From contig JAVHPF010000029.1 of NCBI GenBank assembly GCA_036170435.1, forward strand, positions 1-48,696: 48,696 nt of DNA, written 5' to 3'. The DNA is from Patescibacteria group bacterium. GTDB lineage: Bacteria; Patescibacteriota; Gracilibacteria; BD1-5; UBA6164. The position numbers and the translations under genes are program-made. This document shows positions 2,916 through 33,637 of this stretch, in pieces. Numbering within the stretch: the stretch's first letter is position 1; every line of letters starts with the position of its first letter. The notes beneath the pieces are model-generated. The model was not told where the DNA came from. It made no database searches and saw only the letters and a list, made by a program, of their open reading frames with translations.

Positions 2916-2942
2916 ATTATCTAAATAATTTAAAATTAGAAA

Positions 2943-3368
2943 ATGAAAAAAATAATTTCAATTTTATCTCTTACAGCAATTTTCTTTTACTACTCAAATT
3001 TAACATTAGCTTTAAATTCGGTAGTTGTTTCTGCTGTAGTTTGAAATTTAAATCATTCTCCTGTTGTAATAAATATTGTTCCTAGTAATAATCCTAAACT
3101 ACTGAAAACAAATTCTCTTCAAAACTTTTCTCTTTATTTTAGGGATGATGAAAAAGATATAATTTATTACACAATTACTCCTAAAGATTGATATACAAAT
3201 CCTATAAATTGAATAATATATTCTTCCGATTATGATTCAACTTCTTGAGCTTATATAAATTTTGCATATTTAGCTCCTTCTATAAAAGCTTGAAATTCAA
3301 ATGTAAATATCATTTTAAATGATTGACCAAATATTGTATCTAAGGATATAAATTTATACATTTATTAA
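2943..3368 (+). CDS. small secreted protein, unknown function (141 aa)
   Basis: ATG 2943, TAA 3366-3368, six in-frame TGA. Signal peptide MKKIISILSLTAIFFYYSNLTLA. Same strand as and closely spaced with flanking surface genes. Confidence 0.55.
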
Positions 3369-3380
3369 AATCTAATAAGT

Positions 3381-4385: not shown

Positions 4386-4408
4386 AATTATTTCTTAAAT
4401 TTAAAAAT

Positions 4409-7400: not shown

Positions 7401-7570
7401 CTTTTACTGATGTAAATTGATGGTCTATGAATTATATAGAGACAGCCTATAAATCATGAATAACTAGCTGACAAAATATATGATGAAAACTTATATTCAG
7501 ACCTGGTGATAATATAACAAGAGCTGAAGTAACGAAGATAATAGTAAAAATTATAAGTATAGTTAAATAA
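4409..7570 (+). CDS. large cell-surface protein with Cys-rich modules, poly-Gly linker and three C-terminal SLH domains (1053 aa)
   Basis: Signal peptide MKKVTSLILLISMLLSNALFTYTNA. Duplicated ~80-aa modules ending CNSGYQVSGTSC / CNSGYHVSGNSC (about 6060-6660). 15-Gly linker at 6671-6715. SLH repeats from 7040: FTDIANNFAKNYIVQLASSGIVNGYSDNTFRPGNNTSRIEF, FWDVPDNSWQSPIVAKAIALGII, FTDVNGWSMNYIETAYKSGI...FRPGDNITRAEV. TAA 7568-7570. Confidence 0.8.
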
Positions 7571-7577
7571 AATAAAT

Positions 7578-7604
7578 AAAGCTTTCGAAATATACGAAAG
7601 CTTT
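7578..7604 (+). terminator. rho-independent terminator hairpin after the SLH gene
   Basis: Perfect 10-bp stem aaagctttcg / cgaaagcttt, 7-nt loop, followed by atttatt. Confidence 0.6.
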
Positions 7605-7631
7605 ATTTATTAAGTAAAATTTTTAGACAAT

Positions 7632-7666
7632 AAAAAACTCCAAAGAAAAATCTTTAGGAGTTTTTT
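7632..7666. terminator. bidirectional terminator hairpin between convergent genes
   Basis: aaaaaactcc...ggagtttttt with an inner aaaga/tcttt extension. A-run upstream and T-run downstream, so it can work on both strands. Confidence 0.6.
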
Positions 7667-7695
7667 ATTTATAAGAAATGCTATAAAAGCACAAA

Positions 7696-8358
7696 TTAGA
7701 ATGTACCTACAACTGTGAAAGTAAGAGTATCAGAGTAATCTGAAGCAGCAGCTGTTTCGTCAGCTGAAGTAGCAGCAACTGTAAAAGTTACATCATCATT
7801 TACAGCATCAGTTTTTTCTGGTCTAGTAGAAGAATAAATAGTAACAGCTTGGTTAACAGCATTAACTTCATGAGCCCCTGCACTATCAGTAGCAGAAAAA
7901 TCTGCAACACTAGAATCTGTTGGATTTGCAGTAGAAGCAAAAGTATATGATTCAGCTACACCGTCTTTATTAGCTATGTTAGCGTCATTATTAATAACAC
8001 CACTAGCTGTAATACTTCTTAAACCACCATTAGCAGAAGAAGCAGTAACGACTACACCATTAGTAGCATTAGTTCCTAATTCAATACCAAGATTTGCTGA
8101 TTTACCAGCAGTAGTCAAAGTACCTAATTCTAAACCAGTTCCTGAAATAGTCATATTTAAAACTGGAGAAACTGAAGCATTAACGATAACTGGAGTTAGA
8201 ACTCAAGTTGCAGTTCCTGGAAAATTACCATCCCAAGTTACACCTGTAGAAGTTCCACCAGTTATAGTACCAGTACCAATTTGTGCTGCCATAGCAACAT
8301 TCATAGCTAACATAGAAACTAGTCCTACAGAAGCCAAAGTTTTCTTAAATGTTTTCAT
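7696..8358 (-). CDS. abundant-type secreted Thr/Ala/Gly/Asn-rich surface subunit (220 aa)
   Basis: The two track ORFs (7696-8154, 8203-8445) are in one frame, joined by a single TGA (8203-8205). Start chosen at MKTFKKTLASVGLVSMLAMNVAMA (signal peptide). C-terminus DYSDTLTFTVVGTF resembles the terminal strand of SCPU/Csu- or WxL-type surface subunits (hypothesis). GC visibly higher than the flanks. Confidence 0.75.
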
Positions 8359-8587
8359 AAACAAAAACTTAAAAAATAAAAATACACGCGTGTCTTTATA
8401 TTGAAAAAGACATTTTACATTATCGCTGTTTTTTTTGAAAGTCAAATCAATCTTTACACTTTTTTATTTTAATGTGTAAAAAACATATTTAATATAAATT
8501 TAATAATAATTAAATAATGCTTTTACTTGATTTTTTTTATTTTTTAAGTATAGAAATATATGTAATAAAATATAATCATATAAAATC

Positions 8588-11500
8588 ATGAGAAAAATAT
8601 TTTCTTTTTTAACGCTTTTCTTTTTGATATCAAACATAGTTTGTTCAAATATTGTATACTGAAGTTCAGATATTAGTGTTACATCATTTACAACAAAAGT
8701 AAATTCTGGTAATGCTATCAGTTGAGATATAAAAGCTAATCCTTGAGATCAGCTTTCTATGCTTGTTTCATGAAATAATAATTCATCGACTATCCAAAAT
8801 AATGTGAAGCTAGAATTTATATTTTCAAATACTGTTGATTTTACAAATGATAATCCTGGTCAAACTAGTTCTTATGTAATGTGGTCACCAGTTAATTCAA
8901 ATATATCTCAAACTATTTTTGCCCCACCTTCACTTAATATAGCCCCAATTACTGCTTCATCTGTAAATTGAGATGCTTTAGATTTATATTATACAAAAAT
9001 AAGGGCAAATACTAATGCTAAAACTTATCTAACTACTATATGAGCTAGATTTTTAGCTGATTCTTATGTTTGAAATAGCCTTACTCGTAATATATATCTA
9101 AATGTAAGACCTCATATAACTAACTATTTTTTTTCTAAATCAGCTTTAGTTTGAAATTGAGTTGATTCAGTAGATTTAACATTGAAAGTAAAAGATTATA
9201 ATTGATGTGCAAATATTGCAGGATGAACTGTAACAGCTAATTTATCTAGTCTATGATTATCTAGTGCTGAACCTCTTTCTTATATTTCTTGTGATGCTGA
9301 TTGAAAAACTTGATTATTCAAAAAAACATGAATAGTAAGTCTTGCTTCTATTTGAGACAAAACTTTAACTTATTCTGATTTTTCAGCAAAAGATGCAGAT
9401 GGAAATTATAACACTCCAATAGATCCTAATACTACATTTGGTAATGAGGATAAAAAAACTAATTTAACTATTAGTATTGTAGCTCCAAATGCTCCTGTAC
9501 TTACTATATCTTCTATAAATCCAAGTATAGTTTCTAGCCAAGATTCAATACTTAATTTTTCAGCTACTCAAACTTGATCTTATAAAGTGGTATTAAACTG
9601 AGATTGAACTTGTTCTGCTTGAACGATTATTTCTGATTGGACTTCTTATAATTTGGAAAATTTAAATATAAATATAGTTAATTCCAATTTACAAAATTGA
9701 ACAAATACAATATATGCTTGTGTAAAAAATGCAACTTGAGATATATGAGCCGCAAATATATCTATAACAAAAGATACTTTAGCTCCTACTATATCTAATA
9801 TATCTATTTCGCCTTGAACTGTTACTACATCAAATGCTAATCTAAGTTTTGCTTGTAATGAAGATTGACAATATAAAGTAAATTATGCTTCTTTTGTTGG
9901 ATCTTATCAAACAGCTCTAACTAATCAAACAAATAATGTAAGTATATCTAATTCGTCATTATCTTTAGGAGCTAATAACATAACTATTTACTGTAAGGAT
10001 ACCGCTTGAAATGAAACTACATGAAATGCTAATATAAATAAAATTCAGCCAACTCCTGCTATGAGTTCTAGTTGAATGAGTATTAGTGATAATGATATTT
10101 GATGGGATTGAGTAGATTGAAGAGATTTAAAAGTAAATTGGGATACTTCAATTGGCTCTTCTTTTGCATGATTTGAATCTTATAGAATTTACGTATTACC
10201 TGAAAATACAGCTTTTTCTACTTGATATACTCAATTATGAATAGTTCCAAATTCTCGAATAAATACTTGGACTTGATCTAAAACTATAACAAATGATAGT
10301 GCTTGAAATCCTTTGGCTTGATGAAATTATAAAGCTTATGTTGCTATAATGTGAACTAGTTGAGAATTGTGAACTGTTGCAGCTAGTGCAACATGAACTC
10401 TTATATCTGATGTAGTTCCACATCCTTCAGTATTATCAGCGAGTTTTACATCTACAGGAAATTTACGAGTAAAATTTGATACAGCTCTAAAAACTGATTT
10501 ATCATCACATAATGCTTCTTTATTTGTTTTTCAAGCTTGATGAACGACATATACATGAACTAGCGTATCATCAATATCAAATGATACAATAAATATAAAT
10601 ATTCCTAATTTAACAAATACTGCTTCGACTTGAACACTTAGTGTTTTTACTTGAGCTGCCTGGTGAGTTCCAGTTGATGGTTCTTTTAACAATGCTAGTT
10701 CGTGAGTTTTAATAAGTGATGCTATATCTCCAAATATTATTAATTTTTCTACTTGAAGTACATCTTATTATTCAAATTTTTATTCTTGAACATTAGCTTT
10801 TAATTATAATATTTCTGAAAATCTAAAAGCTGGATGATTTACAAATATACAATTTACTAGAATTTGATGAAATACTGACATCTTAAAAACTTATTCTATT
10901 ACAAATACTTCTAATCTAACAACTTGATCTCATACTGAAAATATAGATTTAAATGCATTGTGACTTGTTTCGTGAGCTTATTATGAAGCTAGACTTATTG
11001 CTCAAGATTTAAATGGAAATACTAATACGAGTAATCCTATAAGTATAAAATTTGATAATGTTGGTCCTAGTATCGTTTCAATAAGTCCATTTTGAGCTCA
11101 AAAAGTATTAGGAATACTAAATCCTACTTTCACTTGGTTTTCTACTACTGATGATTCTTGAAATTGATCTGGAATAAAATGATATAAATTAAGAGTTTAT
11201 ACTTGAAATACAACTTATACTTCTTGGAAAACATGTACTTGAACTTATAGTGAATATAATATTACAAATTTATCAAATTTATCATACCAAACAACTTTAG
11301 CTAATTTATACAATTATGCTTGGGCTGTAACAGCTTATGATAATATGGAAAATATCTGAACAAGCTCTAGTTGTGATAATTTTTATACAAACAACTTAGT
11401 TCCTAGTTTTTCAAATTCTAGTATAACAGATACTGTTTTAAATAGTATAACTTATGCTAAATGATGAAATAATCTAGTTATTAAATCAACTATAACAAAT

Positions 11501-14500
11501 TCTAATTCTGCAAATATATACTTAAAAGCTGATAGTATAAAAGATTCTTCTTATTCAAATATATCTTGTGCTAGTCCAGTTTCTTGAGTAACTTGTTCTT
11601 ATAGTGCCAATATTGCTACATATACTTTTTCAGCTTGAGCTTTAGCTAGTTTATGAAGTTGAGTAAAACAAGTACAATTTACAGCAGCAAATACTTCAGG
11701 AATAAATACTTGAACAACTTTAGCTTCGATTACCCTTGATAATACATCTCCTAGTGTTGCTAGTGATACTCTAACTGCTCCTATTTCTTGAACTATAGGT
11801 TGAACTAGCACAAATATTACTTGGACTCCTAGTAAAATAAGTGACAATATGTGAGTTTCTTATATAAAATTAGAATATTCTTCTGATTGAGGTTCTAACT
11901 GGAATCTTATTTCAACGTGAGCAAATTCTTGAACTTATCCATGGAATATTACAAGTTTAACTTCTTGATCTAATTACGAAGTAAAAATAAGTGCTTACGA
12001 TGTTGTTTGACAATCAAATTCTGCTATTTGAGGAATATTTGCAATAGACAAAGTTCCACCAACTGTTCCATCAAATACCATAACTTATCCAAGTAATACT
12101 TGAATAAAATTAAAATGATGAGCAAGTGTAAATATAACTTGGAATACATGATGAATTACAGATAATATAGGGCTTGCTACAAACCCAATAACTTTATACT
12201 ATTCAATTGATTGATGAACTAATTATATTCAAATTGCTACAAATCTAGCAAATAATTGAACATATACTTGGACTGTTCCAAGTTTAGATAATACTACAAT
12301 GAAAATAAAATTAGAAGCAAGCGATAATGTTGCTAATAAATCTTTTGATATATCTGATAATAATTTTGAAATTGATTCTACTGTTCCAGTATTAACAGTA
12401 ACTGAAGCTTGAAATGGATGAAATACTCCTCAAACAAATAAATATGTAAATAATTCTTGAATAGACTTAACTGCTACTATTACAGATAAAAATTTATCAG
12501 GATGAAATGCTACTTATTCTTTTTATAATGCAACAACTAGTACTTATTGGAATTGAACTAGCTATGTGTGATCAGAAGTTTATAATGCATTAACAAATAT
12601 TAATGCTGCATCTTATAATTTATCAAATACTATAAATCCTAGTATAACAAATTGAAATACATATAAATTAAAACTTAGAGCAAGTGATATTGTTTGAAAT
12701 AATTATACAATACCTGAAATAACTTATCAATGAGATACTGTTAATCCTATTGTTTGATTTACAAATTGAGCTACTATTTATTCTAGTTGAACTGTTCTTA
12801 TTGCTTGAACATCTAGTGATGCGAGCTCTTGAGTAGGTGCTGTAAAATTAGAAATAACAAATTGATCTAATTATTTTGATTGAAGTTCATTTCAATGATC
12901 TTTAACACAACTTGCAACTACTACAAGTAATTCTTATGCTAATTGGAATTATAATTTCACTATTCCTGGAATAGTGGCAGATTGAACTAGTATAAATGTA
13001 AAATCTATTGCTTATGATAAAGCTTATAAAACTCCAAATTTTTGATCTGGTAATATAAGTGTAATAAAAGATACTACTTGACCTGTAATTTCAACTTGAG
13101 TTATAACATATCCTGCTGGATGAGAATCTTTTAGATGAGGACAAAACATAAATATAACTTGGAATACTTGAGCAATAAGTGATGCTGTTTCTTGAATAGC
13201 TGCAAATTCTATATCTTTAGAATATTATAACTGAACTGCTTGGCTTCCTTTAGCTAGTGGTCTTCCAAACTCTTGATCTTATAACTGGAATATTGCAACT
13301 ATTGATTATAATAATGCAAAAATAAGAATTACAGCTACTGATAATGTATGAATTTCCACTTCTCAATTAAGTGCATGATTTTTAGTTGATAGTCTACCTC
13401 CTCATGTAAGTAATGTGGAAACTATGGATAATGATGCAAATGGGCAAGTTGATTGATTACTTGTTAGTTTCAGTGAACCTATAAAAGATAATTCAATAAA
13501 TACATCTAAATTTTCTATCTCAAATTGAATAAATATAACTTGAACTGGTACAGCTTGAATTACAGATGATAACCAATTGACTTTATATTTTACAAACACT
13601 TGATCTAGTAATTTTACTCCGACTTTGACTTATACATCATGAGCTGTAACCGATTTTGTTGGAAATAATCTTATTGCCTGAAATATGATATCAGTAGATA
13701 AAGTTGTTCCTAGAGCACAAAGTGTTCAAATTTTTGATACTAACTCAAATTGAAAACTAGATAAAATAGAAGTGACTATGAGCGAACCTCTTACGGCAAG
13801 TTCTGTAAATAATTGATGGACTATTAATAATGCTTATAATTGAATGAGTGTATCTTCAGTAAATACTTCATCAAATAAAATAAATTTAATACTAAATGAA
13901 TCTAGTGCATTTAATACAGCAACTGGCAATCTAGCACTTAGTTTAAATAATACAATTTATACTGATTTAGCTTGAAATTTAGCTTGAAATATAACATCTA
14001 CTCCTATAGAAGATAAAGCTAGTCCAGTTTTACTTAGTTCTAGTACAAGTGATAATAATTCAAATTATAAAGTTGATAAAGTAAATTTATTATTTAGTGA
14101 AAATATAGCAAATATAAATCCTAGTAATTTAAGTTTATCTTATTTATCTACTTGATCTAGTATATCTAGTTTAACTTGAACTGGAACTTCTACATTAAGT
14201 TTAAATTTAGCTGAAACTAGTAGTGATAATGATTCATCTTATAAACCAAATGTTATTTATAGTTGAACTTCATTAAAAGATTCATCAAATAATACTACGG
14301 CTAATTTCAACCTAGCAGTAACAGATTGAGTAAGCCCTAAAATAATTTCTAGAGAAACTCTTGATTCAAATAATAATGGGAAAGCTGATGCAGTTAAAAT
14401 AAATTTTAGTGAAAATATAAACTGAAATATTTCATCTACTCTTATTTGAGTGAATTCATATAACATAGCATCTTATGCTACTTGATCTAATTATATAATT

Positions 14501-16159
14501 GCAAATGTTGATGAAAAAGATGTAATTGATACATCAGTATTACTTGACTCAAAAATTATTTCAAATACTTCACTAAAAGATTCTGATTGAAATTTAGTAT
14601 TAGCTGAAGCTTGATATTCAACTTCGAGTGATAAAATGTGACCAGTTATATCATTTGCTAGATTTGATTCTATAGATAAATTATATCTTAGTTTTAGTGA
14701 AAATATTACAAATGCTAGCTTACTTGCTTCTGATTTTGTATTAACTTGAACTACAGCTAGTATAATATGAGTAAATTTCACTTCATGAACAAACTCAGCA
14801 ATATTAACTTTGAGTTCTTCTAATATAACATATTGAACATCAACTATAAGTTTTAAAACAAATACAGCTAGTGATTCTGCTTGAAATAAACAAACTAATC
14901 AAGTATTTGCTCGTATTAGTCCTAGTGTAGTAATAAATGAAGTTATGTACTCTAATACTAAAGCAAATCAATATATAGAACTTAGAAATATGTGAAATAC
15001 TTCTGTTTCTATGTCTGGATGGATTTTACAAAATGCTAGCAATTCTGGAACTACAAATTTAAGTCTTCCAGCTTGAGCTACGATTTGAGCTAATTGATAT
15101 TATCTGATAGTAAATTCTAATACTTCCCTATCAATATTATCTTGATCTATAAGTCCTAATTATATAACAAGTTCTTTGAGTTTAAATAGTTCAAGTCAAT
15201 CAAACATAGTTATTACTGATAATTTATGAGCTATCTATGATTCAGTTGTTTCATTTCCTTGGGCAGCATGAAATTCAGTTTCAAATATTTCTATGGAAAG
15301 AAAAAATGTTCCTTGAAATTGAACAGTTTGAACAAATTGGTATTCTGCAGTAGCTTCTGTTTGATTTGATGACTTAATACCTAAATGAACTCCTGGAACT
15401 GATAATAAAATAGATGTAACTCCTCCTGTTATTTGATCATTTACTCCTACAGAAAATACACTATTTCCTATTTGAGATAATGTAAATTTAACTTATAATT
15501 ATTCTGATGATATAGCTTGAGTTTCTACTGGAACATCAAATATAGTAATACAAAAATATAATTGAGTTAGTTTTGATACTTTAGTTTCTCAAATAGCTTC
15601 TAGTAATATAGGTACTACAAGTGCTAATTATACGCTTAATCATCTTAACTTTGGTAAATATAAAGCTGTTTTTACTATAGATGATAAAGCTGGAAATACC
15701 GTAACTCAAGTTATAAATTTCTATGTTGATAAAGTAGAATTTGTTGTATCAACTTGAAGTGTAGATATTTGAAGCGTAAAGGCTAATATCTGAAAATATG
15801 CTGTAGTTGAAGAATCTATAACAGTAAAAACTCTTTGAGCTGGATTTAATCTTTATAACTGAAAAGCTGGAGCATTAAGTAAATGATTAACAGATATTCC
15901 TGATTATTCTTGAGCTACAAATTATTGATTTGGTTTTGATTTATATAAAAATGAAAATTGAACAATAAGAGATTATAACTCAATAATAAATCCAGTAAAT
16001 AATACTATTGTTTGAAATATAACAAAAGATGTATCAAGTTCTGACTGAACTCAAAAAACATATTTTTATAAAATTAAATATTATGTAAGAGTTGATGATT
16101 TACAAGCTGCTTGAAATTATTCTACAAATGCAAATTTCAACTTAGTTCTGAATTATTAA
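8588..16159 (+). CDS. giant cell-surface protein with Ig-like repeat arrays and a lamin-tail domain (2523 aa)
   Basis: ATG 8588, TAA 16157-16159; continuous frame with no TAA/TAG, and roughly one codon in ten is TGA. Signal peptide MRKIFSFLTLFFLISNIVCS. ~100-aa repeats (ITWNTGGITDN...TYTWTVPSL...ASDNVAN; DNDANGQVDGLLVSFSEPI, DTNSNGKLDKIEVTMSEPL, etc.). LTD motif VVINEVMYSNTKANQYIELRNMGNTSVSMSGWIL at about 14927-15400. Confidence 0.85.
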
Positions 16160-19441: not shown

Positions 19442-20082
19442 TTACTTGAAATCTGCTAAGCAAATATCTTTTCAATCTATTATTAGTTTTTTACCATCAT
19501 ATTCTCAATTTTTTAATGGGTCTATGAAATCAGCTAAATTTCTAATTTATGAATTTAATTTTATATTTCATAAATTAGGGTCTATGGTTATATCTCAGAA
19601 AATGTTATGAGTATTAAAACTATAAAGATTCTCAAAATAAGTTCATAAATAATTAAATCTATCAATTACCATAGCTAATTCTTTCTCCTTCCCCATTGAA
19701 TCTACAAACATCACACTATTATTCCCAACATAACTATATAAATTTATATCATCAACTTGCCCAATTGGATCTCTTGATATAAATCTTCCAAGTTCTGCAG
19801 AATAATATCTTACTCTGTAATAATATAATCCTATTTCTTTATCAAATTCTCTTCCAGTAAATAATCTAGAATTATTTATTTTTGACTCTTTAAATTCTCT
19901 CCAATTATAACTTTTTCAATCTCTTATATAAGCTTTTCCAAAAACATAATATTTATCCCCCAAGAGGACGTCCTATGGGCGTACTCTTCTACTACTTTTC
20001 CTTTTTCATCTGTAATTGTAGTAATACTTCATAATTGGTTTTTAGTATAGTAATAAACTTTAAAATATTTTAATTTTACTTG
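19442..20082 (-). pseudogene. rhs: orphan Rhs core + C-terminal tip cassette 1, disrupted
   Basis: 19692-20062 is homologous to the main rhs core (22893-23237): NQLGSITTITDEKGKVVEEY ... GRFISRDPIGQVDDINLYSYVGNNSVMFVDSMG. A 26-nt GC-rich insert (19957-19982) shifts the frame, giving TAA at 19924-19926 in the upstream frame. The short tip ends at TAA 19547-19549; the same frame reopens until TAA 19442-19444. Confidence 0.75.
19957..19982. repeat. 26-nt GC-rich palindromic insertion (cccccaagaggacgtcctatgggcgt)
   Basis: Absent from both other rhs core copies, which read atttat|actcttc. Contains the perfect 10-nt palindrome aggacgtcct. Its length is not a multiple of 3. Confidence 0.8.
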
Positions 20083-20089
20083 TTATAAT

Positions 20090-20764
20090 TTAATTATCTA
20101 TATACCAAATCTTTTTCATAAATCAAAATCTAGATATTAATAAAAGAACTGATTGTTTTTTAGGAATTTCAGTTATAGCTTCTCAATAAATATCTGTAAG
20201 ACGGGTATCTTGTAATGAAATCCTTATTTGTTGCTGATTTTCTAATGTATTATAAGTTCATAAAATTAATGATTCATTTCATATTTTCCAATAATAGAAA
20301 GTAGTTCAAAACTTATTAAATGTATCAGGATTACCAAAAATTCAAGATAATTTTAATAATAATCATGAAAAAATAGAATAATTCCACTCTCAATTATTAT
20401 ATATACTTATTTTATCAACCGATAATAGAATTTTACCATTATCAAATTTCTTATTAGGTGGTATAGTTACAAAATTAAAGTATTTATTTGGAGTAATTTT
20501 AAATAATGGCTGGTAAATAAAATTTTCAAAAAAATCTAATTTAATATCTTTTTTAAAAGTTATAGATTTTTCTGGAGAATATAAATAAATATTATTATTT
20601 TCTGTGGGTATAAATAATACTGGTTCATCAATTGTATTATCTCAATAATATCAAAGAATTTTATTATTATAATAAATATATTCTCAAAATCAAATAGAAA
20701 ATATACTGTAAAACATCAAGATTAATGATAGTATAATAAGTCATTGTTTAATTATTTTTTTCAT
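20090..20764 (-). CDS. membrane-anchored protein in the rhs locus, possible accessory or orphan immunity (224 aa)
   Basis: ATG 20764, TAA 20090-20092, ends checked. N-terminal TM helix GLIILSLILMFYSIFSIGF. No recognisable domain. Confidence 0.5.
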
Positions 20765-20807
20765 AATTTTAAATAATTATCATAATTAAGAAAAAGACTA
20801 AAATATA

Positions 20808-21173
20808 CTATTTATATTCTATCTCTTTTATAAAATCAGTACTTCAATCTGAATTTTTATAATATATTTTATATATTCATTTTTTATCTAAATCAATAGA
20901 AATTTCATTTTTAGGATTAAGTAAAAATTTAAAAAACTTTGTATAAAATGATATATATATTTTTTCATCCTCAATTGAATATTCTATATCTGAAACTCAT
21001 ATAGATGAGTCTCAGATATATCAATTTATATATAAAATATTCTTAGTAGTACTAATCTCTAAAAATTTTCATCAATTGTTAACAAATGTTCATTTTGAAA
21101 TAGACATATTATATATTATTGATAATAATATCAGTAATATAATTATAATTATTATTGAAAAAAAAGTTTTCAT
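20808..21173 (-). CDS. putative Rhs immunity protein 2, N-terminal TM anchor (121 aa)
   Basis: ATG 21173, TAG 20808-20810, all codons checked. TM helix FFSIIIIIILLILLSIIY. Lies directly downstream of orphan toxin cassette 2. Confidence 0.6.
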
Positions 21174-21227
21174 TATTAATTAAGTTAATAATATAAATTT
21201 TAGCTGTTATAAATTAAATATATAGAT

Positions 21228-21983
21228 TTATAAATTATTTATTGAATCTGCAAGCGTATTAGGATTACTTATTCAAAAAGAATTCCTATCTTCTAACTTA
21301 TATTCAGATACAGTATTCCAAGCATCTGATGCCCAAGCACTACATGGATAAGCATATCCCCATTTAATATTATAAATACTATAATATATATAATCATTTA
21401 ATATTTCCATTTTATTTTTATCTAATTCAAGTTTTGCATATTCAAAATTATCATAATTTAAATATGTTTCTGGTCAATTTACTTGAATTCAATCACTTAC
21501 AGGATATTTTAAACTATCTCTATCTGGCCATAATCAATATGTAATTGTATGTCAATTTTTTGTTATTTCTATCCAGCTATGTCCTTCAATAAACGATTCA
21601 TTTCAACTACTTCATCTATCAGAGTATATCGTCAATATAGCTTTTTCTAAACCCATCGGATCAACAAACATCACACTATTATTCCCAACATAACTATATA
21701 AATTTATATCATCAACTTGTCCAATTGGATCTCTTGATATAAATCTTCATAAATCTGCTGAATAATATCTTGCTCTATAATAATATAATCCTGTTTCCTT
21801 ATCAAACTCTCTTCCAGTAAAAAGTCTTGTATTATCAATTTTACTTTCTTTAAACTCTCTCCAATTATCAGATTTTCAATCTCTTATGTAAGCTTTTCCA
21901 AAAACATCGTATTTATACTCTTCTACTACTTTTCCTTTTTCATCTGTAATTGCAGTAATACTTCATAATTGGTTTATTCTATT
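21228..21983 (-). CDS. rhs: orphan Rhs core + toxin-tip cassette 2 (251 codons open, no start codon at its 5' end)
   Basis: Open from the TAA at 21984-21986 down to TAA 21228-21230. 21652-21975 matches main rhs 22893-23216, including a 120-bp identical block. Carries ...RFISRDPIGQVDDINLYSYVGNNSVMFVDPMG then a divergent tip with GHSWIEITKNG...YPCSAWASDAWN. The first ATG/GTG lies just before DPMG. Confidence 0.75.
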
Positions 21984-22350
21984 TTACTTTTCAAAAACAA
22001 TATTCTCAATAATTATTTAAATAACACATCTCATATCAAATAAACTTTTTTGCCTCAAATAAATAATTATTTTCTAACTTATCTGTTGTATTTAAATATC
22101 TAAAATATAATTTCTTCTTATTTTCATCTTTTTCTAAATTTACTATACCATTATAGATATTTCCAGAATCACCCCAAAATGAAATATATGTTCAAGTTTG
22201 ATAAATACTTAAAAATTCAAAAGGTTTCATACTTTTATGATAACTATTAATTCGAAATATATAATATATCAATACTAATGCAAAAATTAATGTTATAGAT
22301 AAAAATATTATCATTATATATTTTATTATTTTATAAGTTTTATTTTTCAT
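21979..22350 (-). CDS. putative Rhs immunity protein 1, N-terminal TM anchor (123 aa)
   Basis: ATG 22350 lies 11 nt after the rhs stop. TAG 21979-21981, all codons checked. TM helix IIKYIMIIFLSITLIFALVLIYYIF. Confidence 0.65.
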
Positions 22351-22360
22351 TACAATTAAA

Positions 22361-25300
22361 TTAATAAATTAAATCTTTATATAAATCTGGTAATGAATAA
22401 GTTCATTGTCAATAACTAAGATTATTTATATTTGAATAATAATCTTTTGCATTATTTCTAAGAGATTCTATAGAGGTAGCTAATGAATCAGGATTACTTA
22501 CAAGACCATCATTTAAATAATTATCAGATACAGTATTCCATATATCAGTAGCAAAGTCACTACAAGGTGCAAATTCAGACCATTTAAGTCAATTACTAAT
22601 ATCTGAATTTATAGTATTAATTATAGTATCATACTGATATCAATTTATATATTCTCATATTGAAACTACATTATCATAATTAGCATAATTTCTATCTTTT
22701 TCTCTATTTTTTACTATATCTGAATTTTGGTTTATAGCATAAGTTGAATTTGACCAATTATTTCAAATTCAATATGAAGTAGTTTCTCAATTTATCGTTA
22801 ATTCTATCCAAGAATGTCAATCTATAAAAATATATGGATTTTCATACCAAGAATAAATTGTAATTTTTCATACTATCAAACTCTTTTCCTTCCCCATCGG
22901 ATCAACAAACATCACACTATTATTCCCAACATAACTATATAAGTTTATATCATCAACTTGTCCAATTGGATCTCTTGATATAAATCTTCAAAGTTCAGCA
23001 GAATAATATCTTGCTCTGTAATAATATAATCATATTTCCTTATCAAATTCTCTTCCAGTAAACAATCTATCATTATTTATTTTTGAGTCTTTAAAATCTC
23101 TCCAATTATCAGATTTTCAATCTCTTATGTAAGCTTTTCCAAAAACATCGTATTTATACTCTTCTACTACTTTTCCTTTTTCATCTGTAATTGCAGTAAT
23201 ACTTCATAATTGGTTTTTAGTATAGTAATAAACTTTAGATTTTCAATCTTTTGTTATAATACTTGCTAAAATATCATCAATAGTGTTTGAATAAATATTT
23301 TCTTTTGTTTCTTCTAGTTTCAATTTATCTTTTTCTTGTTCAAAAATTTCTTCAACTATTGCATTATTTCAAGCATAAGTATATTTTACCACTTTGTTTT
23401 CATTTTTATCTTTATCATCTTCATAAACTATTTTTTCTAGTCTTCTTCATAAAGTATCATAAGAATATTTTGCAATAATTTCACTATTTTTATATTTTTG
23501 ATTTTTTCCTTTTATTCCCTCGCCTATAAGGAGAGGGTTAGGGTGAGGTATTTCTAATTCTTCTACTTTTACTAATCTATTTCTATAATCATAGAAATAT
23601 TTTTGTTTATTATCTTGTATAAGATTTCAGTTATTATCATAAACGAAATTTTCATTTTTCTTTTCAATATTTGTTTGAGTATATTGATTCAGTTCATTGG
23701 TAATATAATCAACATTTGTAATATCTTTTTTTCAAGATTTTCAAACTGTTTTTTCTTCTGTTAATTGAGAACTTGTTCTATTTCAAATATTATCATAAAC
23801 AAACTCTTCTTTTCTCCCTTTTTCAAAGGGAGAACCCGAAGGGGGAGGGATTATTTGACTTGATATTAATCTTGAAATTTCATCATAATTATAGTTTTCA
23901 AGTCAATTTGATTTAATATTTCAAATATTATCGTATGAAAAAGTTAAACTATTTATAATATTTTCTTGTGTTGAAGTATTTTTTCATTTTTTAAGTTCTT
24001 CAATAGAAATATTTTTTAATTCTTGTAATCTTCATAGATTATCATAAGAATAGTTTGTTTTGGTAGTATTTCCATTGATTTGATTTACTAATTCTAATCA
24101 AGAATAATTATAGTCTATATTTATTCCTTTTGTTCCCTCGCCTGCAAGCATAACTGAGACAGGAGTGCTTGCACGACTATCTTCGAAGTTAGAGCGAAGC
24201 AGAGGGTTAGGGTGAGGTGTATTTATATTTTTAAGTCTATTTATCTCATCATAAGATTTTGTTACTACTTTTCAACTTGGATAGATTAGTTTTACTTGAT
24301 TTCAATTAAAATCGTATTCGTAGTTAATTGTTTTTCAATTATTTGTTTCACTTGTAAGTTGGTTAAGCGAATTATATACGAAACTTGTTTCAATAGTTTT
24401 TCATTCATTATCTATACTTTTTGAGTTTATTAATCTTCATAAATCATCATAAATATAGTTTTCTTTTATAGTTCAGATTATTCAAGTAGAATTTGAAATA
24501 TTTCTTTCTACTAATCTATTTAGAAAATCAAAAGTATTTGAGATAATATTCCCGTTTGGATCAGTTTTTTTAACTACATTACCTAGTGAATCATATTCAT
24601 AATTTATTTGTTTTGTATCACTATAGATTTCTTTTTTAAGTCTATTAAATAAGTCATAAACATAAGTAGTTTTATTTCAATTTCAATCAATAATTGCTAT
24701 TAAGTTTCAGTTTATATCATATTCAAATTTTGTTTCAATATTTTTTCAATTTATATATTGAATCTTTTTTGTAACTTTTCAAAGATAATTATATTCTAAA
24801 TCTGTTTTATTTCAGTTTTTGTCTAGAACTCTTGTGATTTGATTTAAAGAATTGTAAATATATCATTTCAGAACATCATTATCTGATTTTTCTCAAATAA
24901 GTCTATTATCTTTGTCATAAAAATAATATGTATTTAGAATTTTTCAAATATTACTTATAATTGATTTTTTAGTAATATTATCATTTTTATCATATTCAAA
25001 AGTTTGTTTATTTCATAGAGAATCTATTATAGAAAGACTTCTTCAAAATATATCATAATTAAGACTTGTTTTATTTCCTGAATTTTCTATTTTTTCAACT
25101 AAAAGTCATTTATTATAAATATAATTTGTAGTAATTTGAGTATTTGATTCTATATTATAGATAATTTCTTTTGTAGTATTTCCAAGTAAATCATAAATTT
25201 TTTCTTGTTTTGATAAAAGTTTATTTTCTTTGTTAAATACTTCAATTTTTATAACATTTCAAGAAACATCATAAGTTAAATTTGTAATGTTTCCTAATTC

Positions 25301-28108
25301 ATCTGTTATTTTAGTAACTTGATTAAATAAATCATATTTTAGAGTTTTTGAATTTCATTTAGCATCAATAATTTTTGTAATATTTCAAGCATTATCGTAT
25401 TCATATTTCGTTTCAATTCATTCAAAAATAGTTTTTATTACTTTATCAAATTCATTATAGAAAAATTCTTTTACAGCTCAATTTGGATAAGTAATTTTTT
25501 TGATATTTTCATTATTATCGTATTCAAATTTTGTTTTAGAATTTAAATCTTTTGAAATAGGATTATTTATTTCAGAAATTTTATCTAAAATATCATAAGT
25601 TTTTGAGACATTTACATCATTATTATCAACTTTTTCAGATTGTTTTATATTATTTCCATTCAAATCATATTCAAAAGAATTTATAACTCACTCCGGACTA
25701 ATAGTTTTTATTATCTGATTAAATTTATTATAATTTATACTTTTTGTATTTCAATTTGCATCTGTTACAGATAAAATATTTCAAGCATTATCATAAGTAA
25801 AACTTGTATCAATAGTATCTGAAAATATAGCAAGTAATGATGAATCTTTTTTTGATATTTTTACTAAATTTCCATTTTGATATTCTAAACTAGTTTTTAA
25901 TCAATTTGGATTTATAGTTTTTACAAGTTGTCATAAATTATCATATTCATAGCTTGTTTCTAGAATTTCATCTCAATTAAAAATTTTTTTATTTATTACA
26001 TTTCATTTTTCATTAAGATTATTTTCTATAATAAGTCCGTTTGATTTTGTTATTTTTATTGGAGTTTCAAAATTTCATTCGTATTCGTATCTTGAGATTT
26101 TCTCATATTCTCAGATTTCTTTTTGTATAAGGAGTCTTCATAAAGAATCATAAGAATATTCTATAATTTTTCAGTTTGGATTAATATCTTTTGTAAGTCT
26201 TCCATTTTCATCATATTCATATTTGAATTCTACAATTCAATTATTTGTTTCTACTTTTCTTGAAATAGTATTTCAATTTATATCAAAAGAATACTCTGTT
26301 TTTACTCAATTTCTATTTATTACATTATTTTTTATTACTTTTCAATTTTCATTGCTAGTATATGTATAATTTACTGTTCAATTTCAATATTTTTGACTAA
26401 TTACTCTGTCCGATTCATCATATGTATTTTCTACATAAGTTTGTAATTTTGAATCAATTAGTTTTGATATATTATGATTTAATTTTTCATTTGCATTTCA
26501 AGAAATATATTCAAATTTGATTTCTTTTAAACTTCAATTTTTTCAAGTTTTTATACTTACTAAATCATTATTAGAGTCATAAATAAAATCTATTTCATCA
26601 TTATTTGAAGTAGTAATTTTTACAAGTCTAGAATCAGCATTATAAATATAGTTTATTTCTTTTCATAAAGTATCTATAGTTTTAATTAGTTTTTTATCTG
26701 CATCATAGTAGTAAGATAAGGCATTTCCATTTTTATCTTCTATTTTTGATATTTTATTTATATCATTAAAATAATATTTTTTTCAGTTATCAAATACTAT
26801 TTTATATAATTCATTTTCTTTTGATAAAGTTGCTCTTGAAGATAAATTATAGCTATTTTCTCAATTAAATTTTGAAATAGAAAATAATCAATTATGTAAA
26901 TCGATTATATTATCATCATTTTTTGAAATATATATATTTTGATTATGATCAAAATTAAATCAAAGTGGTCAATTATAATATACTTGATTTGAGTATTTTA
27001 TATCCAAATCATAATTTAAATTTAATCATTTTAAAGATAATAATTTATTCAAATAATCAAATTCTCAATTAGAAATATTTACTGGATCCACAGTATCTTG
27101 TGAATTATTAGATAGATTAGATGAGTTATTTATGAAATCATTATTTAATCCTATTATTCAATTATTATAATATGTATAATCTCAATTATCTGGTAGTTGA
27201 GGTAGATCTATTGGAGGTATATCATTTGTAAAAATAAGACAATTTTTATCCACTCAATGCATCCAATGTCAAGATACTATTCATTTATCAATTATTAAAT
27301 TATTAATATTTCATTTTTTTTCTTTAACTTTTAATCCTTCCCATCAACAAAAAACAGAATTTCATAAATCTGTATCAAATGACAAATGTCATTCTATTTT
27401 ATCAAAAGATTCATATATATTTTTTTCTTTAGTTTTAAGATTATATATTCACCATCATTGTAAATATGAAGAATCTTCATTATAATCAAATGTTTTATAG
27501 TATAATGTATCTAAATTTTCATCCACCCAAAAAAATCAATTCCATGTAACTTCCCGACTTTTTCAAAAAAGATGTTCAGAAATTCAATTTTTGTAAATAT
27601 CAAATCAACTATTAGAAAGTTTAATAGTACTTCATTTATAAGGCTGGATAGATTGTCAATACATTCATCAAATAGTTTTCCGATAATTATCAATTGAAAT
27701 ATCATTTGATCACCAATAGGATGTTCATGGTATGTTGTGAAATTCTAAAGCTGTTATAGAAATTGCAGGAGTATTATAATTATCATTAATATTTTTTTTA
27801 AAATAATACATATCAGTTGGAACTATTTTAAAATAACTCCAATAAACATAATCTCATTGTTTTTTAAATGCAACAGGTTGATTTAAAGATGTTATAGAAG
27901 ATTCAAAAACTTCTTTTTCCCCATCCTTATTTATTTTCATTATTTTTCATGTTGTCCGGTCATTATCATTATCAATTGTAGAATCAACATAAATAACAAC
28001 ATAATCACTATTATTTATATTTGTTGCTAAAGCACTATTATAAAATAATGGAGAAAATAATATCCCTAAAAATAGTATTTTCTTAAATATCACATTTTTT
28101 ATTTTCAT
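22361..28108 (-). CDS. rhs: Rhs/YD-repeat polymorphic toxin (1915 aa)
   Basis: ATG 28108, TAA 22361-22363. Signal-like N-terminus MKIKNVIFKKILFLGILFSPLFYNSALA. Dozens of YD repeats (YEYDENGRLT, YEYDNLGQLV, YTYDNAGNIL, YEYDSLGNVV; Gly mostly TGA). Core end YYYRARYYSAELGRFISRDPIGQVDDINLYSYVGNNSVMFVDPMG. About 178-aa C-terminal tip. In frame with track ORF 25478-25663. Confidence 0.9.
22893..23237. repeat. rhs core repeat, master copy (other copies at 21652-21975 and 19692-20062)
   Basis: Three direct copies of the last ~110 core codons. 23097-23216 is base-for-base identical to 21856-21975. Confidence 0.9.
23517..23549 (-). repeat. GC-rich palindromic element A, in frame inside rhs
   Basis: ccctcgcc-tataagg-agagggttagggtgaggt in an otherwise AT-rich ORF. 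Stem CCCTC.CC/GG.GAGGG. Translated as PHPNPLLIGEG. Confidence 0.75.
23814..23850 (-). repeat. GC-rich palindromic element B, in frame inside rhs
   Basis: Sense strand tccctcccccttcgggttctccctttgaaaaagggag. Hairpins ccc-ttcg-ggg and tcccttt-gaa-aaaggga. Translated IPPPSGSPFEKGRKEE. Related copies at 29392-29438 and 29865-29910. Confidence 0.75.
24135..24219 (-). repeat. GC-rich element A carrying a nested 57-nt palindromic insert, in frame inside rhs
   Basis: Same ends as 23517-23549 (ccctcgcc ... agagggttagggtgaggt), but the loop is replaced by tgcaagca...tgcttgca and cttcg...cgaag inverted repeats. Translated PHPNPLLRSNFEDSRASTPVSVMLAGEG. Confidence 0.75.
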
Positions 28109-28210
28109 AAAACAAAACATTAAAGAATTAAAAATGATAAGAATATCTTATCATTTTTATATTTTACATATCAAATATTAATTTTTTATTAACAAATAAA
28201 AGATTTTTAA

Positions 28211-28257: not shown

Positions 28258-28332
28258 TGGCTGGGATGGTAGGATTCGAACCTACGAATGGCGGAGTCAA
28301 AGTCCGCTGCCTTACCACTTGGCGACATCCCA
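28258..28332 (-). tRNA. tRNA-Gln (anticodon UUG), CCA encoded
   Basis: Sense strand TGGGATG-TC-GCCAAGTGGTAAGGC-A-GCGGA-CTTTGAC-TCCGC-CATTC-GTAGG-TTCGAAT-CCTAC-CATCCCA-G-CCA. 7-bp acceptor with U1-A72 and discriminator G73 (bacterial tRNA-Gln identity elements). Anticodon loop CU-UUG-AC, T-loop TTCGAAT. Confidence 0.9.
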
Positions 28333-28452: not shown

Positions 28453-29859
28453 ATGAAAATAAGTATTTTTGGTACTGGATATGTATGACTAGTTAGTTGA
28501 GCCTGTTTATCAGAATTATGACACGAAGTAATGTGTATTGATATTGATGAAAAAAAGATAGAAAATCTGAAAAAATGAATAATTCCCATTTATGAGCCAG
28601 AACTTGATGAACTTGTTAAAAGGAATTATAAACAAGGTAGGTTATCATTTTCTACTAATATTCCTGAGTGAATAAAATTTGGGAAAGCTATTTTTTCAGC
28701 TGTCGGAACTCCTCCAGATAAAGAAAATAATAATAAGGCTGACTTAAAATATGTTGAAGAAGTAGCTAAAACTTTTGGTGAGAATATAAGTGAATATAAA
28801 CTTTTCATAAACAAATCAACTGTTCCAGTAGGAACTGGAAAAAGATGTAGAGATATAATCAAAAAAGAAATTCAAAAAAGAGGAAAAGATATAGAATTTG
28901 ATGTTGCATCAAATCCAGAATTTCTTAGAGAATGAAGTGCTATATATGATTTTTTAAATCCTGATAGAGTAGTTTGCTGAGTACAAAACGAAAAAGCTAA
29001 ACAAATAATGGAAGAGATTTACAAACCTCTAGCAAACAAAACTGAAATCATAATAACTGATATTGCTTCAGCAGAAATAATCAAATATGCAGCAAACGCA
29101 TTCCTCGCTACAAAAATCAGTTTCATCAATGAAATAGCAAATTTTGCGGAAAAAGTAGGATGAAATATTTGAGATATAAGCAAGTGAATATGAGCGGATA
29201 ATAGAATCGGAAATAAATTCCTAGAATCTGGAATCGGTTATGGTTGATCTTGTTTTCCGAAAGATATAAAAGCTTTTATAGAAACTTGAAAAGACTTCGA
29301 TCACGAATTCAAAATAATCAGAGAGACTGAAAATGTAAATGAAAGACAAAAAACTATAGTTATTGATAAATTGATAGAATCGATGGAATCCATCCCTTCT
29401 CCATTACATTCCGAAGGACTTCCTTTGGAAAAGGAAGAAATTAATGAATCACAACTATTAAAATGAAAAACTATTTCTATCTGGTGACTCGCTTTTAAAC
29501 CGAATACTGATGATATTAGAGAAGCTCCAAGTATTTCAGTAATAAATAGATTACTTGAACTTTGAGTAGAACAAATTAAGACTTTTGATCCGGCTTGTAT
29601 GACTCATATGGAAGGAGTATTTAGAGAAAATAGTGAAGTAGTATTTTGTGAAACTAATTACCTGGCTTTAGAAGATAGTGATGCTCTAATAGTTCTAACT
29701 GAATGGAATGAATTCAAAATTCCAGATATAAAAAGAATTAGAAAATCTATGAAATGAAATATTATAATAGATGGTAGAAATATTTGGGCAGATGAAAATC
29801 TAATTGATGAATGATTTATATACAAATCTATATGAAAAGTCTCTAAGAAACATTTATAG
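28453..29859 (+). CDS. ugd: UDP-glucose 6-dehydrogenase (468 aa)
   Basis: [32 protein letters not shown] (Rossmann motif, three of its Gly are TGA). Catalytic-site GIGYGGSCFPKD at 29230-29265 (TGA 29245-29247). [18 protein letters not shown] 29857-29859. About 20 extra residues at 29392-29438. Confidence 0.9.
29392..29438 (+). repeat. probable element-B copy inserted in frame in ugd
   Basis: atcccttctccattacattccgaaggacttcctttggaaaaggaaga, GC-richer than its surroundings. Hairpin ttccttt-gga-aaaggaa. Translated [16 protein letters not shown], in the same phase as the rhs copy (IPPPSGSPFEKG). Confidence 0.5.
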
Positions 29860-29864
29860 GAAAA

Positions 29865-29910
29865 TCCCTCCCCCCCCTTCGGGTACTTCGCCTTTCTAAA
29901 AAGGGAGAAA
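29865..29910 (+). repeat. element-B copy, intergenic
   Basis: tccctccccccccttcgggtacttcgcctttctaaaaagggagaaa begins 6 nt after the ugd stop and aligns with the rhs copy (reverse complement of 23814-23850). Confidence 0.7.
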
Positions 29911-29911
29911 T

Positions 29912-30024
29912 AGAACAAATCCCCCGGTCTACGACCACCCCCTTAATAAGGGGGACAAGAGTAAAATAAAAAAGTCCCCCTTATTAAGGGGGTGGCTGAG
30001 GAATGAAGCCGGGGGATTTGTTCT
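29912..30024. repeat. 113-nt nested GC-rich palindrome (MITE-like or structured RNA/terminator)
   Basis: Outer perfect 16-bp inverted repeat agaacaaatcccccgg (29912-29927) / ccgggggatttgttct (30009-30024). Inner perfect 22-bp inverted repeat ccacccccttaataagggggac (29935-29956) / gtcccccttattaagggggtgg (29974-29995). Each inner arm is itself a CCCCC-TTAATAA-GGGGG hairpin. Confidence 0.85.
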
Positions 30025-32563: not shown

Positions 32564-33637
32564 ATGACAATTAATAAAAGTATGAAAAAATTACCTCTAA
32601 ATCATAATTTTTTGAAGCCTGAAATAATTAAGAAATTAATACGAGCACATAAAGCCCTTGCCGAACTTAATTGATTATCTCATAAAATTCCAAATCAAAA
32701 TATTTTGATAAATTCTCTTTCTTTACAAGAAGCAAAAGACAGTAGTGAAATAGAGAATATAATAACAACTCATGATGAACTTTATAAGTCCCAAATTGAT
32801 AAAAGTTTTCTATCAACTCAAACAAAAGAAGTTGCAAATTATAAAGAAGCTTTACTTTTGGGTTTTGATATAGTCAAAAAAAATAAACTGCTTTTAAATA
32901 GAGATATTTTAGAAATTCAAGAAATTTTAGAAAAAAATGATGCAGGATTTAGAACTCAAATTTGAACAAAACTAAAAAATGATCAAACTGGAGAAACTAT
33001 ATATACTCCGCCTCAAAATATAGAAGAAATAAAAGATTTAATGACTAATTTAGAAAAATATATAAATGAAGATTTAGAAGATATTGATCCACTTATTAAA
33101 ATGGCAATAATTCACCATCAATTTGAATCAATTCACCCATTTTATGACTGAAATTGAAGAACTTGAAGAATTATAAATATTTTATATTTAGTGAAAAATG
33201 ATTTACTTAATATGCCGATTTTATATCTTAGTAATTATATTATTAAACATAAATCAGATTATTATAGATTATTACAAGAAGTAAGAGAAAAATGAAATTG
33301 GGATGAATGGATTTTGTATATGCTTGATGCAATAGAAAAAACTTCACTTGATACTATGGAGATGATAAAATCTATTTGGGATTTGATGTGAAAAACAAAA
33401 AAATCCATGAAAGAAAAGATTCCAAAAACATATTCTAAAGATTTACTTGAAATAATTTTTTCCCATCCATATACAAAAATAGATTTTTTAGTTGCTGGAA
33501 TGTGAATTACTAGGAAGACTTCAGCAAAATATTTACAAGAAATGGTAGATAATTGATATATGATAGTAATTCAAATATGAAAACATAAATATTTTGTAAA
33601 TATAGAATTATTTGAAAGATTAAAAAAATGATTATAA
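32564..33637 (+). CDS. fic: class II Fic-family AMP-transferase with Fic_N region and C-terminal wHTH-like tail (357 aa)
   Basis: Fic motif HPFYDGNGRTGR at 33134-33169, with all three Gly encoded by TGA. N-terminal inhibitory motif SSEIEN, i.e. (S/T)xxxE(G/N). In frame with track ORF 32705-32965. TAA 33635-33637. Confidence 0.9.

Follow-up and report, generated by a model that had tools for sequence, protein, structure and literature searches.

Does a bacterium with a reduced genome that reads TGA as glycine hold a complete Rhs polymorphic-toxin system, and if so, on which part of the target cell would its toxin act? The question is raised by a contig of 48,696 nucleotides (JAVHPF010000029.1, positions 1 to 48,696 of the forward strand, assembly GCA_036170435.1) from a Patescibacteria group bacterium of the Gracilibacteria; this whole stretch is referred to below as the window. 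Between positions 19,442 and 28,108, it carries on the minus strand a gene for a large Rhs protein, several small downstream genes, and two orphan cassettes made of an Rhs core end and a tip. A preliminary description, made from the letters alone, had read this arrangement as a competition toxin with displaceable tips. Our analysis suggests that the locus is probably a WapA-type, Sec-exported Rhs polymorphic-toxin system of a TGA=Gly Gracilibacteria-like bacterium, with a His/Cys tip that acts on the cell envelope. It is a well-formed example of a known Rhs weapon and not a new kind of system.

When the standard bacterial code (table 11) was applied, only eight short open reading frames (ORFs) were found across 18–30 kb. 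Reading TGA as a sense codon raised the long-ORF coverage from 4.2 to 58 kb and revealed a 1929-codon open frame at 22361-28147; the window has a GC content of ~22%. To identify the amino acid, the neighboring UDP-glucose dehydrogenase, Ugd, was aligned with Protein Data Bank (PDB) entries 3gg2 and 4a7p: ~13 to 14 of its 19 TGA positions stand opposite Gly and none opposite Trp. At position five of the Rhs YD motif, where Gly is expected, TGA occurs 12 times, GGN three times, and TGG never. TGA and GGA replace each other among the three paralogous copies of the Rhs core, and in six long ORFs, 408 TGA codons were counted compared to 137 for all GGN codons. From these four observations, it follows that TGA encodes Gly in the window and that the Trp reading is excluded, as the table-25 assignment in the preliminary description had it. 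ARAGORN detected no tRNA-Gly(UCA) in the window, where tRNA-Gln is the sole tRNA. To our knowledge, table 25 is confined to Gracilibacteria and Absconditabacteria, and the nearest full-length relative of the Rhs protein (48% identity over 1636 aa) comes from a Candidatus Gracilibacteria metagenome-assembled genome (locus L004; related loci are referred to by such L numbers below). Public protein collections have rendered these code-25 contigs (the window, L001 to L004, and L006) with TGA as Trp (table 4), so that DWHSWIE, for example, stands in databases where DGHSWIE is correct. Such translations place false Trp residues at Gly positions and hinder both homology and structure searches.

The main rhs gene (22361-28108, minus strand) comprises 1915 codons and a TAA stop, with 101 in-frame TGA codons read as Gly. 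Family hidden Markov models searched against this translation matched RHS_repeat (PF05593, E = 7e-90, 10 stretches), YD_repeat (TIGR01643, E = 5e-54), and Rhs_assc_core (TIGR03696, E = 7.4e-23). The family membership that had been proposed as the first thing to check is thus confirmed, and the ORF, the family models, and inspection of the N terminus together bear out a 1915-aa Rhs protein with signal peptide, YD repeats, and core. The Rhs-associated core domain (22892-23113, minus strand; residues 1666-1739) has RDPIGQVDDINLYSYVGNNSVMFVDPMG as its C-terminal end, and the core terminates with PIGQVDDINLYSYVGNNSVMFVDPMG directly before a tip of 176 aa; the tip had been announced at ~178 aa, and its presence stands with this small correction of length. 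The RDPIG...VDPMG motif at this boundary is intact in the main gene and in orphan cassette 2 and has decayed to DSMG in orphan cassette 1. We take the DPxG...DPxG region to be the self-cleavage site of Rhs/TcC proteins.

At the other end of the protein, inspection and a hydropathy scan point to a putative Sec signal peptide, MKIKNVIFKKILFLGILFSPLFYNSALA (28025-28108, minus strand; cleavage before TN), with a basic n-region, a hydrophobic core (KD15 hydropathy of 1.79), and an A-L-A cleavage motif. The same scan revealed no second hydrophobic segment in the Rhs protein (maximal KD19 of 0.74 past residue 30). Residues 341-401 gave a sub-threshold match to the DUF6531 plug, no match to PAAR, VgrG, or LXG was obtained with Pfam/NCBIfam, and the N-terminal 290 residues are not conserved with the L004 homologue. 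WapA proteins, which are exported by Sec, follow the order of signal peptide, N-terminal region, DUF6531 plug, Rhs shell, and toxin, accompanied by truncated orphan duplications (PMC12704120). By analogy, and judging from the sequence features above, export of the Rhs protein would follow the Sec-dependent WapA pattern. A scan of the window for secretion genes found none of the type VI (T6SS), type VII (T7SS), or other secretion systems, in agreement with what had been described. The accompanying suggestion of Sec export also fits, but the export route is less open than it had been made to appear, since the documented WapA class of Gram-positive Rhs toxins uses Sec (PMC12704120).

Two orphan cassettes lie downstream of rhs. 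Orphan cassette 2 (21228-21983, minus strand; TIGR03696, E = 2.5e-25; TAA stop at 21228-21230) joins a core fragment of 111 codons (21651-21983, minus strand) to the 140-aa tip 2 (21231-21650, minus strand). No ATG, GTG, or TTG is found within its first 103 codons; as claimed earlier, it is an open frame without a start codon. Orphan cassette 1 (19547-20062, minus strand; TIGR03696, E = 1e-23) is indeed disrupted: a GC-rich 26-nt insertion (19957-19982, minus strand) lies between an upstream core piece (~19983-20062, minus strand) and the remaining core (19691-19956, minus strand) and shifts the frame, and the core is followed by a tail of just 47 aa and a stop (19547-19690, minus strand). There is no immunity-like gene downstream of this cassette, and none of the fetched loci contains a relative of the tail. 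The cassette is a dead, decayed remnant.

The three core copies have 275–330 nt in common at 90–92% DNA identity. Between the main gene and orphan 2, the shared tract is 330 nt long with 92% identity and contains an uninterrupted stretch of 120 identical nt; between the main gene and orphan 1, it is 275 nt long with 90% identity. The identity stops exactly at the DPMG codon and is ~35% beyond it. Differences between the copies amount to 11–17 synonymous and 8–11 non-synonymous codon changes, a synonymous share that, taken as a count rather than a formal test, is consistent with selective constraint. The 330-nt common tract would be ample for homologous recombination; as computed, recombination over it results in the loss of 1241 bp (tip 1 and its downstream gene, imm1) and joins the main gene to tip 2. 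Recombinants were not observed directly. Scanning metagenome contigs with degenerate codons for the peptide at the core end yielded L006, in which a core 92–95% DNA-identical to the window copies is followed, past the DPMG boundary, by an unrelated tip of ~190 aa and then by a multi-pass membrane ORF. Another code-25 contig (L003, 1700-8500, 32% GC) contains an array of at least five orphan core-plus-tip cassettes with differing tips, and core remnants are located downstream of the main genes in L001 and L004 as well. The break of homology at DPMG, the L006 core with its unrelated tip, and the co-variation of tips with immunity genes considered below substantiate the displaceable-tip architecture of the preliminary description.

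Each cassette of the L003 array, which is richer than that of the window, is trailed by one or two small membrane proteins. Downstream of the imm1 homologue of L004, at 6316-6691, a short core stub, YFYQKDQLGSLTS, continues without a break into another anchored protein similar to imm1 (E = 5e-6). The stub and this protein look like an orphan that has lost its tip and retained its immunity gene.

Tip 1 (176 aa, 22364-22891, minus strand) consists of a His/Cys domain, IDGHSWIE ... APCSDFATDIWN ... SNPDSLATSI, and a 30-aa tail. The tips of the main gene and of orphan 2 had been considered simply different, which is not the case: they are homologous (36% identity, E = 4e-23) and have in common the motifs GHSWIE, YG, PCSxxAxDxWN, and SNPxxLAxSI. 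Tip 1 is 46% identical to the L004 tip. A word-indexed search with the tip returned just two outside relatives, and an exhaustive profile search returned 83 cluster representatives at 50% identity. In a domain alignment of 77 sequences, the His is the sole invariant residue; the Cys, two Trp, an Ala, a Pro, and an Ile are conserved in at least 90% of the sequences. DUF6950 (PF22262) gave weak, sub-threshold matches over the helix-Cys region in 13 of these 77 members (best E = 0.004), and no mention of it was found in the literature searched. A weak match to PF15644 (Papain fold toxin 1, glutamine deamidase; E = 0.003–0.016) was obtained for one member of the family.

The domain occurs as the C-terminal Rhs tip in standard-code bacteria (P0027, P0049, P0058, and P0082) and as the N terminus of proteins that end in XVIPCD (P0031, P0036, and P0037; E down to 3e-16 for XVIPCD), the secretion signal of bacteria-killing type IV secretion system (T4SS) effectors (PMC6759196). 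Because it is both an Rhs tip in standard-code bacteria and fused to XVIPCD, the domain can be considered an antibacterial toxin. The tips belong to a widespread, uncatalogued family of probable envelope-degrading enzymes. Several of the effectors with this domain and XVIPCD are described in the literature as being of "unknown function". P0040 is likewise listed among the proteins with an N-terminal tip domain and a C-terminal XVIPCD, and a lipoprotein gene is located upstream of P0037 (L009). Smlt3024, a characterized effector of the Xanthomonadales T4SS, was dropped as a candidate family member; it has been published as related to RTX N-terminal domains.

To estimate the fold, the orphan-2 tip was modeled with AlphaFold from the 77-sequence alignment, which yielded a predicted local distance difference test score (pLDDT) of 88 and a predicted template modeling (TM) score of 0.85. 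In this model, strand 2 begins with the His, and a helix farther along (103-114) begins with the Cys. The order of His before Cys, taken from the conservation in the 77 sequences and from the model, fits the permuted papain-like class. A fold search of the PDB returned a sole full-length match, TseH (6v98), with a TM score of 0.60 and a probability of 0.89, other matches having TM scores of ~0.2. In a viral-library fold search, with a best E of 2e-3 and a probability of 1.0, the named matches were all permuted papain-like proteins: two C92 amidases of the YaeF/YiiX kind, a cysteine peptidase (TM score of 0.58), a lecithin retinol acyltransferase (LRAT), and picornavirus/kobuvirus polyproteins. 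On the strength of the model, we infer that the tips are His/Cys hydrolases of the permuted papain-like (NlpC/P60-LRAT-YiiX-PPPDE) fold class, with TseH the closest member. Since there is no sequence-level link and the Foldseek E for TseH is 0.2, we propose a common fold class only and do not claim membership in the TseH family. TseH has a GHAG motif and homologues among Rhs tips; its toxicity is confined to the periplasm, and it lyses permeabilized cells and is neutralized by TsiH, which is encoded downstream (PMC4453574). The catalytic mutant of TseH (6v98) is H64A.

The small proteins encoded next to the tips indicate where such an enzyme would act. The candidate immunity protein for tip 1, imm1 (123 aa, 21979-22350, minus strand), has a single N-terminal anchor (hydrophobic residues 6-35), and its gene starts 10 nt past the rhs stop; the anchored protein that had been noted is therefore present, at a spacing of 10 rather than 11 nt. 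In L004, the corresponding position is taken by a homologue of imm1 (30% identity, E = 5e-10). The candidate immunity protein for tip 2, imm2 (121 aa, 20808-21173, minus strand), also has a single N-terminal anchor. At first comparison, no relatives of imm2 were found, and tblastn then exposed homologues masked by a frameshift in a (TA)n tract: after bridging, imm2 is homologous to the tip partners of L001 (E = 3e-8) and of L002/L003 (E = 6.5e-6). The frameshifted imm2-like genes are located at L001 ~3925-3990 and L002 ~1960-2010, and also in L003, with the (TA)n tract at the same position; the frameshift is either an artifact of assembly or sequencing or slipped-strand phase variation of the immunity gene. 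A third small protein, p224 (224 aa, 20090-20764, minus strand), has a single N-terminal anchor too, and both the 121-aa and the 224-aa proteins are thus present as described.

All nine adjacent small proteins that were examined, in code-25 and standard-code genomes, carry a signal peptide, a lipobox, or a signal anchor. The partners in the code-25 contigs (L001, L002/L003, and L004) have an N-terminal anchor or export signal, the deltaproteobacterial partner (L005) has a cleavable signal peptide, and the partners elsewhere have a lipoprotein-like signal (L007), an anchor (L008), and a clear lipobox (LNAC; L009). When tips and partners of five loci were compared, tip 1 and the L004 tip paired with imm1 and its L004 counterpart, and tip 2 and the L001 and L002 tips paired with imm2 and its L001 and L002 counterparts; the two immunity families have no significant mutual similarity. 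In these sequences, the perfect co-variation of tip subtype with partner family is the pattern expected for cognate toxin-immunity pairs, and the downstream proteins would accordingly be predicted to neutralize the tips. The immunity role proposed earlier is hence supported for imm1 and imm2 by position and co-variation, but not for p224. Because the co-varying partners are exported or anchored and because the tip resembles TseH, the toxin appears to act outside the cytoplasmic membrane, with peptidoglycan as the most likely substrate and an LRAT-like action on lipids as the main alternative.

The system that we propose would work as follows. The 1915-aa precursor would pass the membrane by means of its N-terminal signal peptide, the YD repeats would build the usual shell enclosing the C-terminal tip, and the core, as the conservation of the motif suggests, would release the tip by cutting at the DPMG boundary. 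The 176-aa tip, presumably a permuted papain-like His/Cys hydrolase structurally nearest to Vibrio cholerae TseH, would then attack the target envelope outside the cytoplasmic membrane, most likely at peptidoglycan cross-links or amide bonds. The small protein encoded downstream, membrane-anchored with its domain facing outward, would bind the tip and so shield the producer and its kin. Orphan 2 would keep in store a paralogous tip that has diverged and has an immunity gene of its own; this tip could replace tip 1 through recombination over 330 nt. Orphan 1 would be a decayed leftover.

Several observations weigh against this proposal and were set against it. The modeled tip 2 is the database version with TGA read as Trp, in which seven Gly positions are Trp, and the Foldseek E for TseH is not significant alone. 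An earlier tip model, built on a three-sequence alignment, had a pLDDT of 60, gave no match in the fold search, and was discarded. With Pfam/NCBIfam, neither the tips nor the 77 relatives gave anything beyond the weak DUF6950 matches and one weak Gln_amidase match, lax settings included, which leaves the domain without a link to a papain-like profile, and a profile search of PDB sequences returned noise only (PARP4, E = 0.25) and hence no sequence-related solved structure. The permuted papain-like class also includes phospholipases and acyltransferases (LRAT) and is thus compatible with more than one substrate. In Rhs residues 30-340, no wall-binding domain (CWB2, LysM, or similar) was matched by Pfam/NCBIfam. 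Finally, p224 has no Pfam/NCBIfam match and no relative among the fetched loci.

It is conceivable, if rather unlikely, that the TseH-like hydrolase is part of the equipment with which an epibiotic or predatory Gracilibacterium feeds and is not mainly an anti-competitor weapon. The tip, displayed beside giant surface proteins, may then open the host or prey wall at the contact site, and the anchored immunity proteins may chiefly guard the producer's own wall during Sec export. If it is true that the toxin hits host or prey walls, polymorphic toxins would be tied to an episymbiotic lifestyle, as hardware recruited for episymbiosis.

The same architecture and delivery could also serve a tip that is a phospholipase or acyltransferase of the LRAT/H-RAS-like-suppressor type and damages membrane lipids rather than peptidoglycan. 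We consider this an unlikely reading as well. The permuted order of the H-box and NC motifs (GH[SA]W ... N/P-C-[SA]) is a signature of the LRAT branch, and outward-facing immunity proteins would suit a toxin of the outer leaflet equally. The viral-library matches to LRAT itself and to the kobuvirus/picornavirus polyproteins, the 2A region of which bears the H-box/NC motif, point the same way; however, the LRAT match is weak (TM score of 0.36, E = 0.32), and no match to LRAT or NlpC/P60 was obtained by sequence. The sole full-length solved match remains TseH, for which cell rounding and the lysis of permeabilized cells are read as wall damage.

Most characterized Rhs/WapA tips are cytoplasmic nucleases, tRNases, or ADP-ribosyltransferases. 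Tips of the tRNase kind are documented for WapA (PMC12704120). This precedent, together with the weak PF15644 match of one family member, could be taken to mean that the tips act in the target cytoplasm as papain-fold deamidases or proteases and that the anchored proteins are unrelated or matter only indirectly. Such a site of action is improbable given that export signals, of which one is a clear lipobox and another a cleavable signal peptide, are found in nine of nine adjacent small proteins, that the partner proteins co-vary with tip subtype, and that TseH does little harm in the cytosol and kills from the periplasm. Least probable of all, and very doubtful, is a relic that has fallen out of expression and use, as an island in decay beside a tRNA gene: orphan 1 is frameshifted, orphan 2 lacks a start, GC-rich mini-elements lie inside rhs, and tRNA-Gln is immediately upstream, but the 5.7-kb frame is intact in DNA of 22% GC, the three element insertions in rhs all keep the frame, the codon changes among the core copies include the synonymous share given above, both tips retain intact His and Cys motifs, and start-less orphans are normal in Rhs systems.

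The proposed envelope-acting Rhs system was compared to four known ones. It resembles WapA (Bacillus subtilis WapA/WapI and Streptococcus suis WapA-CT; PMC12704120) in its Sec signal without T6SS or T7SS markers, its YD shell, its core ending in DPxG, its variable tip with a candidate immunity gene immediately after it, and its truncated orphan duplications. Unlike WapA, the window Rhs has no recognizable CWB2 or LysM domain in its N-terminal 300 residues and no linked SecF-like or sortase gene; its tip is a probable envelope hydrolase and not a tRNase or nuclease, its immunity proteins are anchored facing outward, and its host is a TGA=Gly bacterium with a reduced genome. To TseH/TsiH (6v98, PMC4453574), the likeness lies in the TM score given above, a GH-x-x His followed by a Cys, homologues that occur as Rhs tips, an extracytoplasmic action (predicted for the window tip), and an adjacent immunity gene whose protein works, or would work, outside the cytoplasm (for TsiH, in the periplasm). 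In contrast, a HMMER profile search found no sequence similarity to TseH, which is a stand-alone, PAAR-adjacent protein secreted by the T6SS.

The enterobacterial Rhs systems of Salmonella and E. coli (Koskiniemi et al. 2014, cited in PMC12704120) also consist of a main rhs gene followed by start-less cores with alternative tips and immunity genes, the common core being the substrate for tip-swapping recombination. These systems are T6SS-delivered and linked to PAAR/VgrG, whereas the window system is of the Sec type and its two tips are paralogues of one family. Some effectors of the X-Tfe type, which belong to the bacteria-killing T4SS of Xanthomonadales (PMC6759196, PMC8740702), share the His/Cys domain, N-terminal in them and joined to XVIPCD, and one of them has a lipoprotein-type partner. 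Their delivery machine and domain order are entirely different, and they have no Rhs shell.

A relative of the Rhs protein had already been labeled "RHS repeat-associated protein" by JGI. In the papers on cultivated and uncultivated Gracilibacteria and Absconditabacteria that were text-searched, Rhs is not mentioned, and a joint search for Rhs with either of these groups retrieved nothing relevant from the literature covered. The locus indicates that tiny-genome TGA=Gly lineages retain a complete and still evolving Rhs system, equipped with spare tips and matching candidate immunity genes. It also brings to light a widely distributed His/Cys toxin domain that has no curated family, has a TseH-like predicted fold, and is common to Rhs tips and T4SS effectors, and it provides a comparative case for outward-facing immunity proteins.

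The surroundings of the locus include genes of the cell surface. A run of surface proteins at 1725-16159, each with an N-terminal signal-like sequence, comprises a WxL-interacting protein with a peptidoglycan-binding domain (WxLIP_PGBD), a protein of 1053 aa in which three SLH domains and a poly-Gly tract are found, and a 2523-aa protein with LTD and fn3 domains. The SLH and WxLIP domains suggest a wall of the Gram-positive type that may include an S-layer. Vampirococcus, a cultivated bacterium with the same code, has a Gram-positive wall, the Sec system, and secreted peptidoglycan hydrolases (PMC8080830). Both the surface proteins of the window and this bacterium speak in favor of Sec export. 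On the other side of rhs, tRNA-Gln(UUG) (28258-28332, minus strand; ARAGORN, and Rfam RF00005 with 67 bits) is located 150 nt upstream of the rhs start. A promoter and terminator scan was uninformative in this AT-rich DNA (106 sites compared to 100 expected). Farther on, a Fic/DOC-family protein (32564-33637; Fic_N, E = 1e-28; Fic, E = 1.5e-19; SoFic-like C-terminal domain) is encoded among glycosylation genes.

GC-rich hairpin elements stand out from this genome of 22% GC at 19957-19982, 23500-23551, 23822-23853, 24126-24219, 29386-29460, and 29857-30018. Three of them are GC islands inside rhs (23500-24219, minus strand), where they encode IPHPNPLLIGEGIKG, IIPPPSGSPFEKGRKE, and PHPNPLLRSNFEDSRASTPVSVMLAGEGTKG in frame; compared to the L004 Rhs protein, each of them is an insertion that keeps the frame. 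Several elements are intergenic, and one 26-nt copy is the insertion that frameshifts orphan 1. By their common termini, the elements fall into at least two families, one with rhs_A and rhs_C and the other with rhs_B and the intergenic copy IG1. They resemble the palindromic elements of Rickettsia, whose presence within coding sequences is tolerated. Ugd apparently carries one such element too, as an insertion of ~20 aa compared to its PDB homologues.

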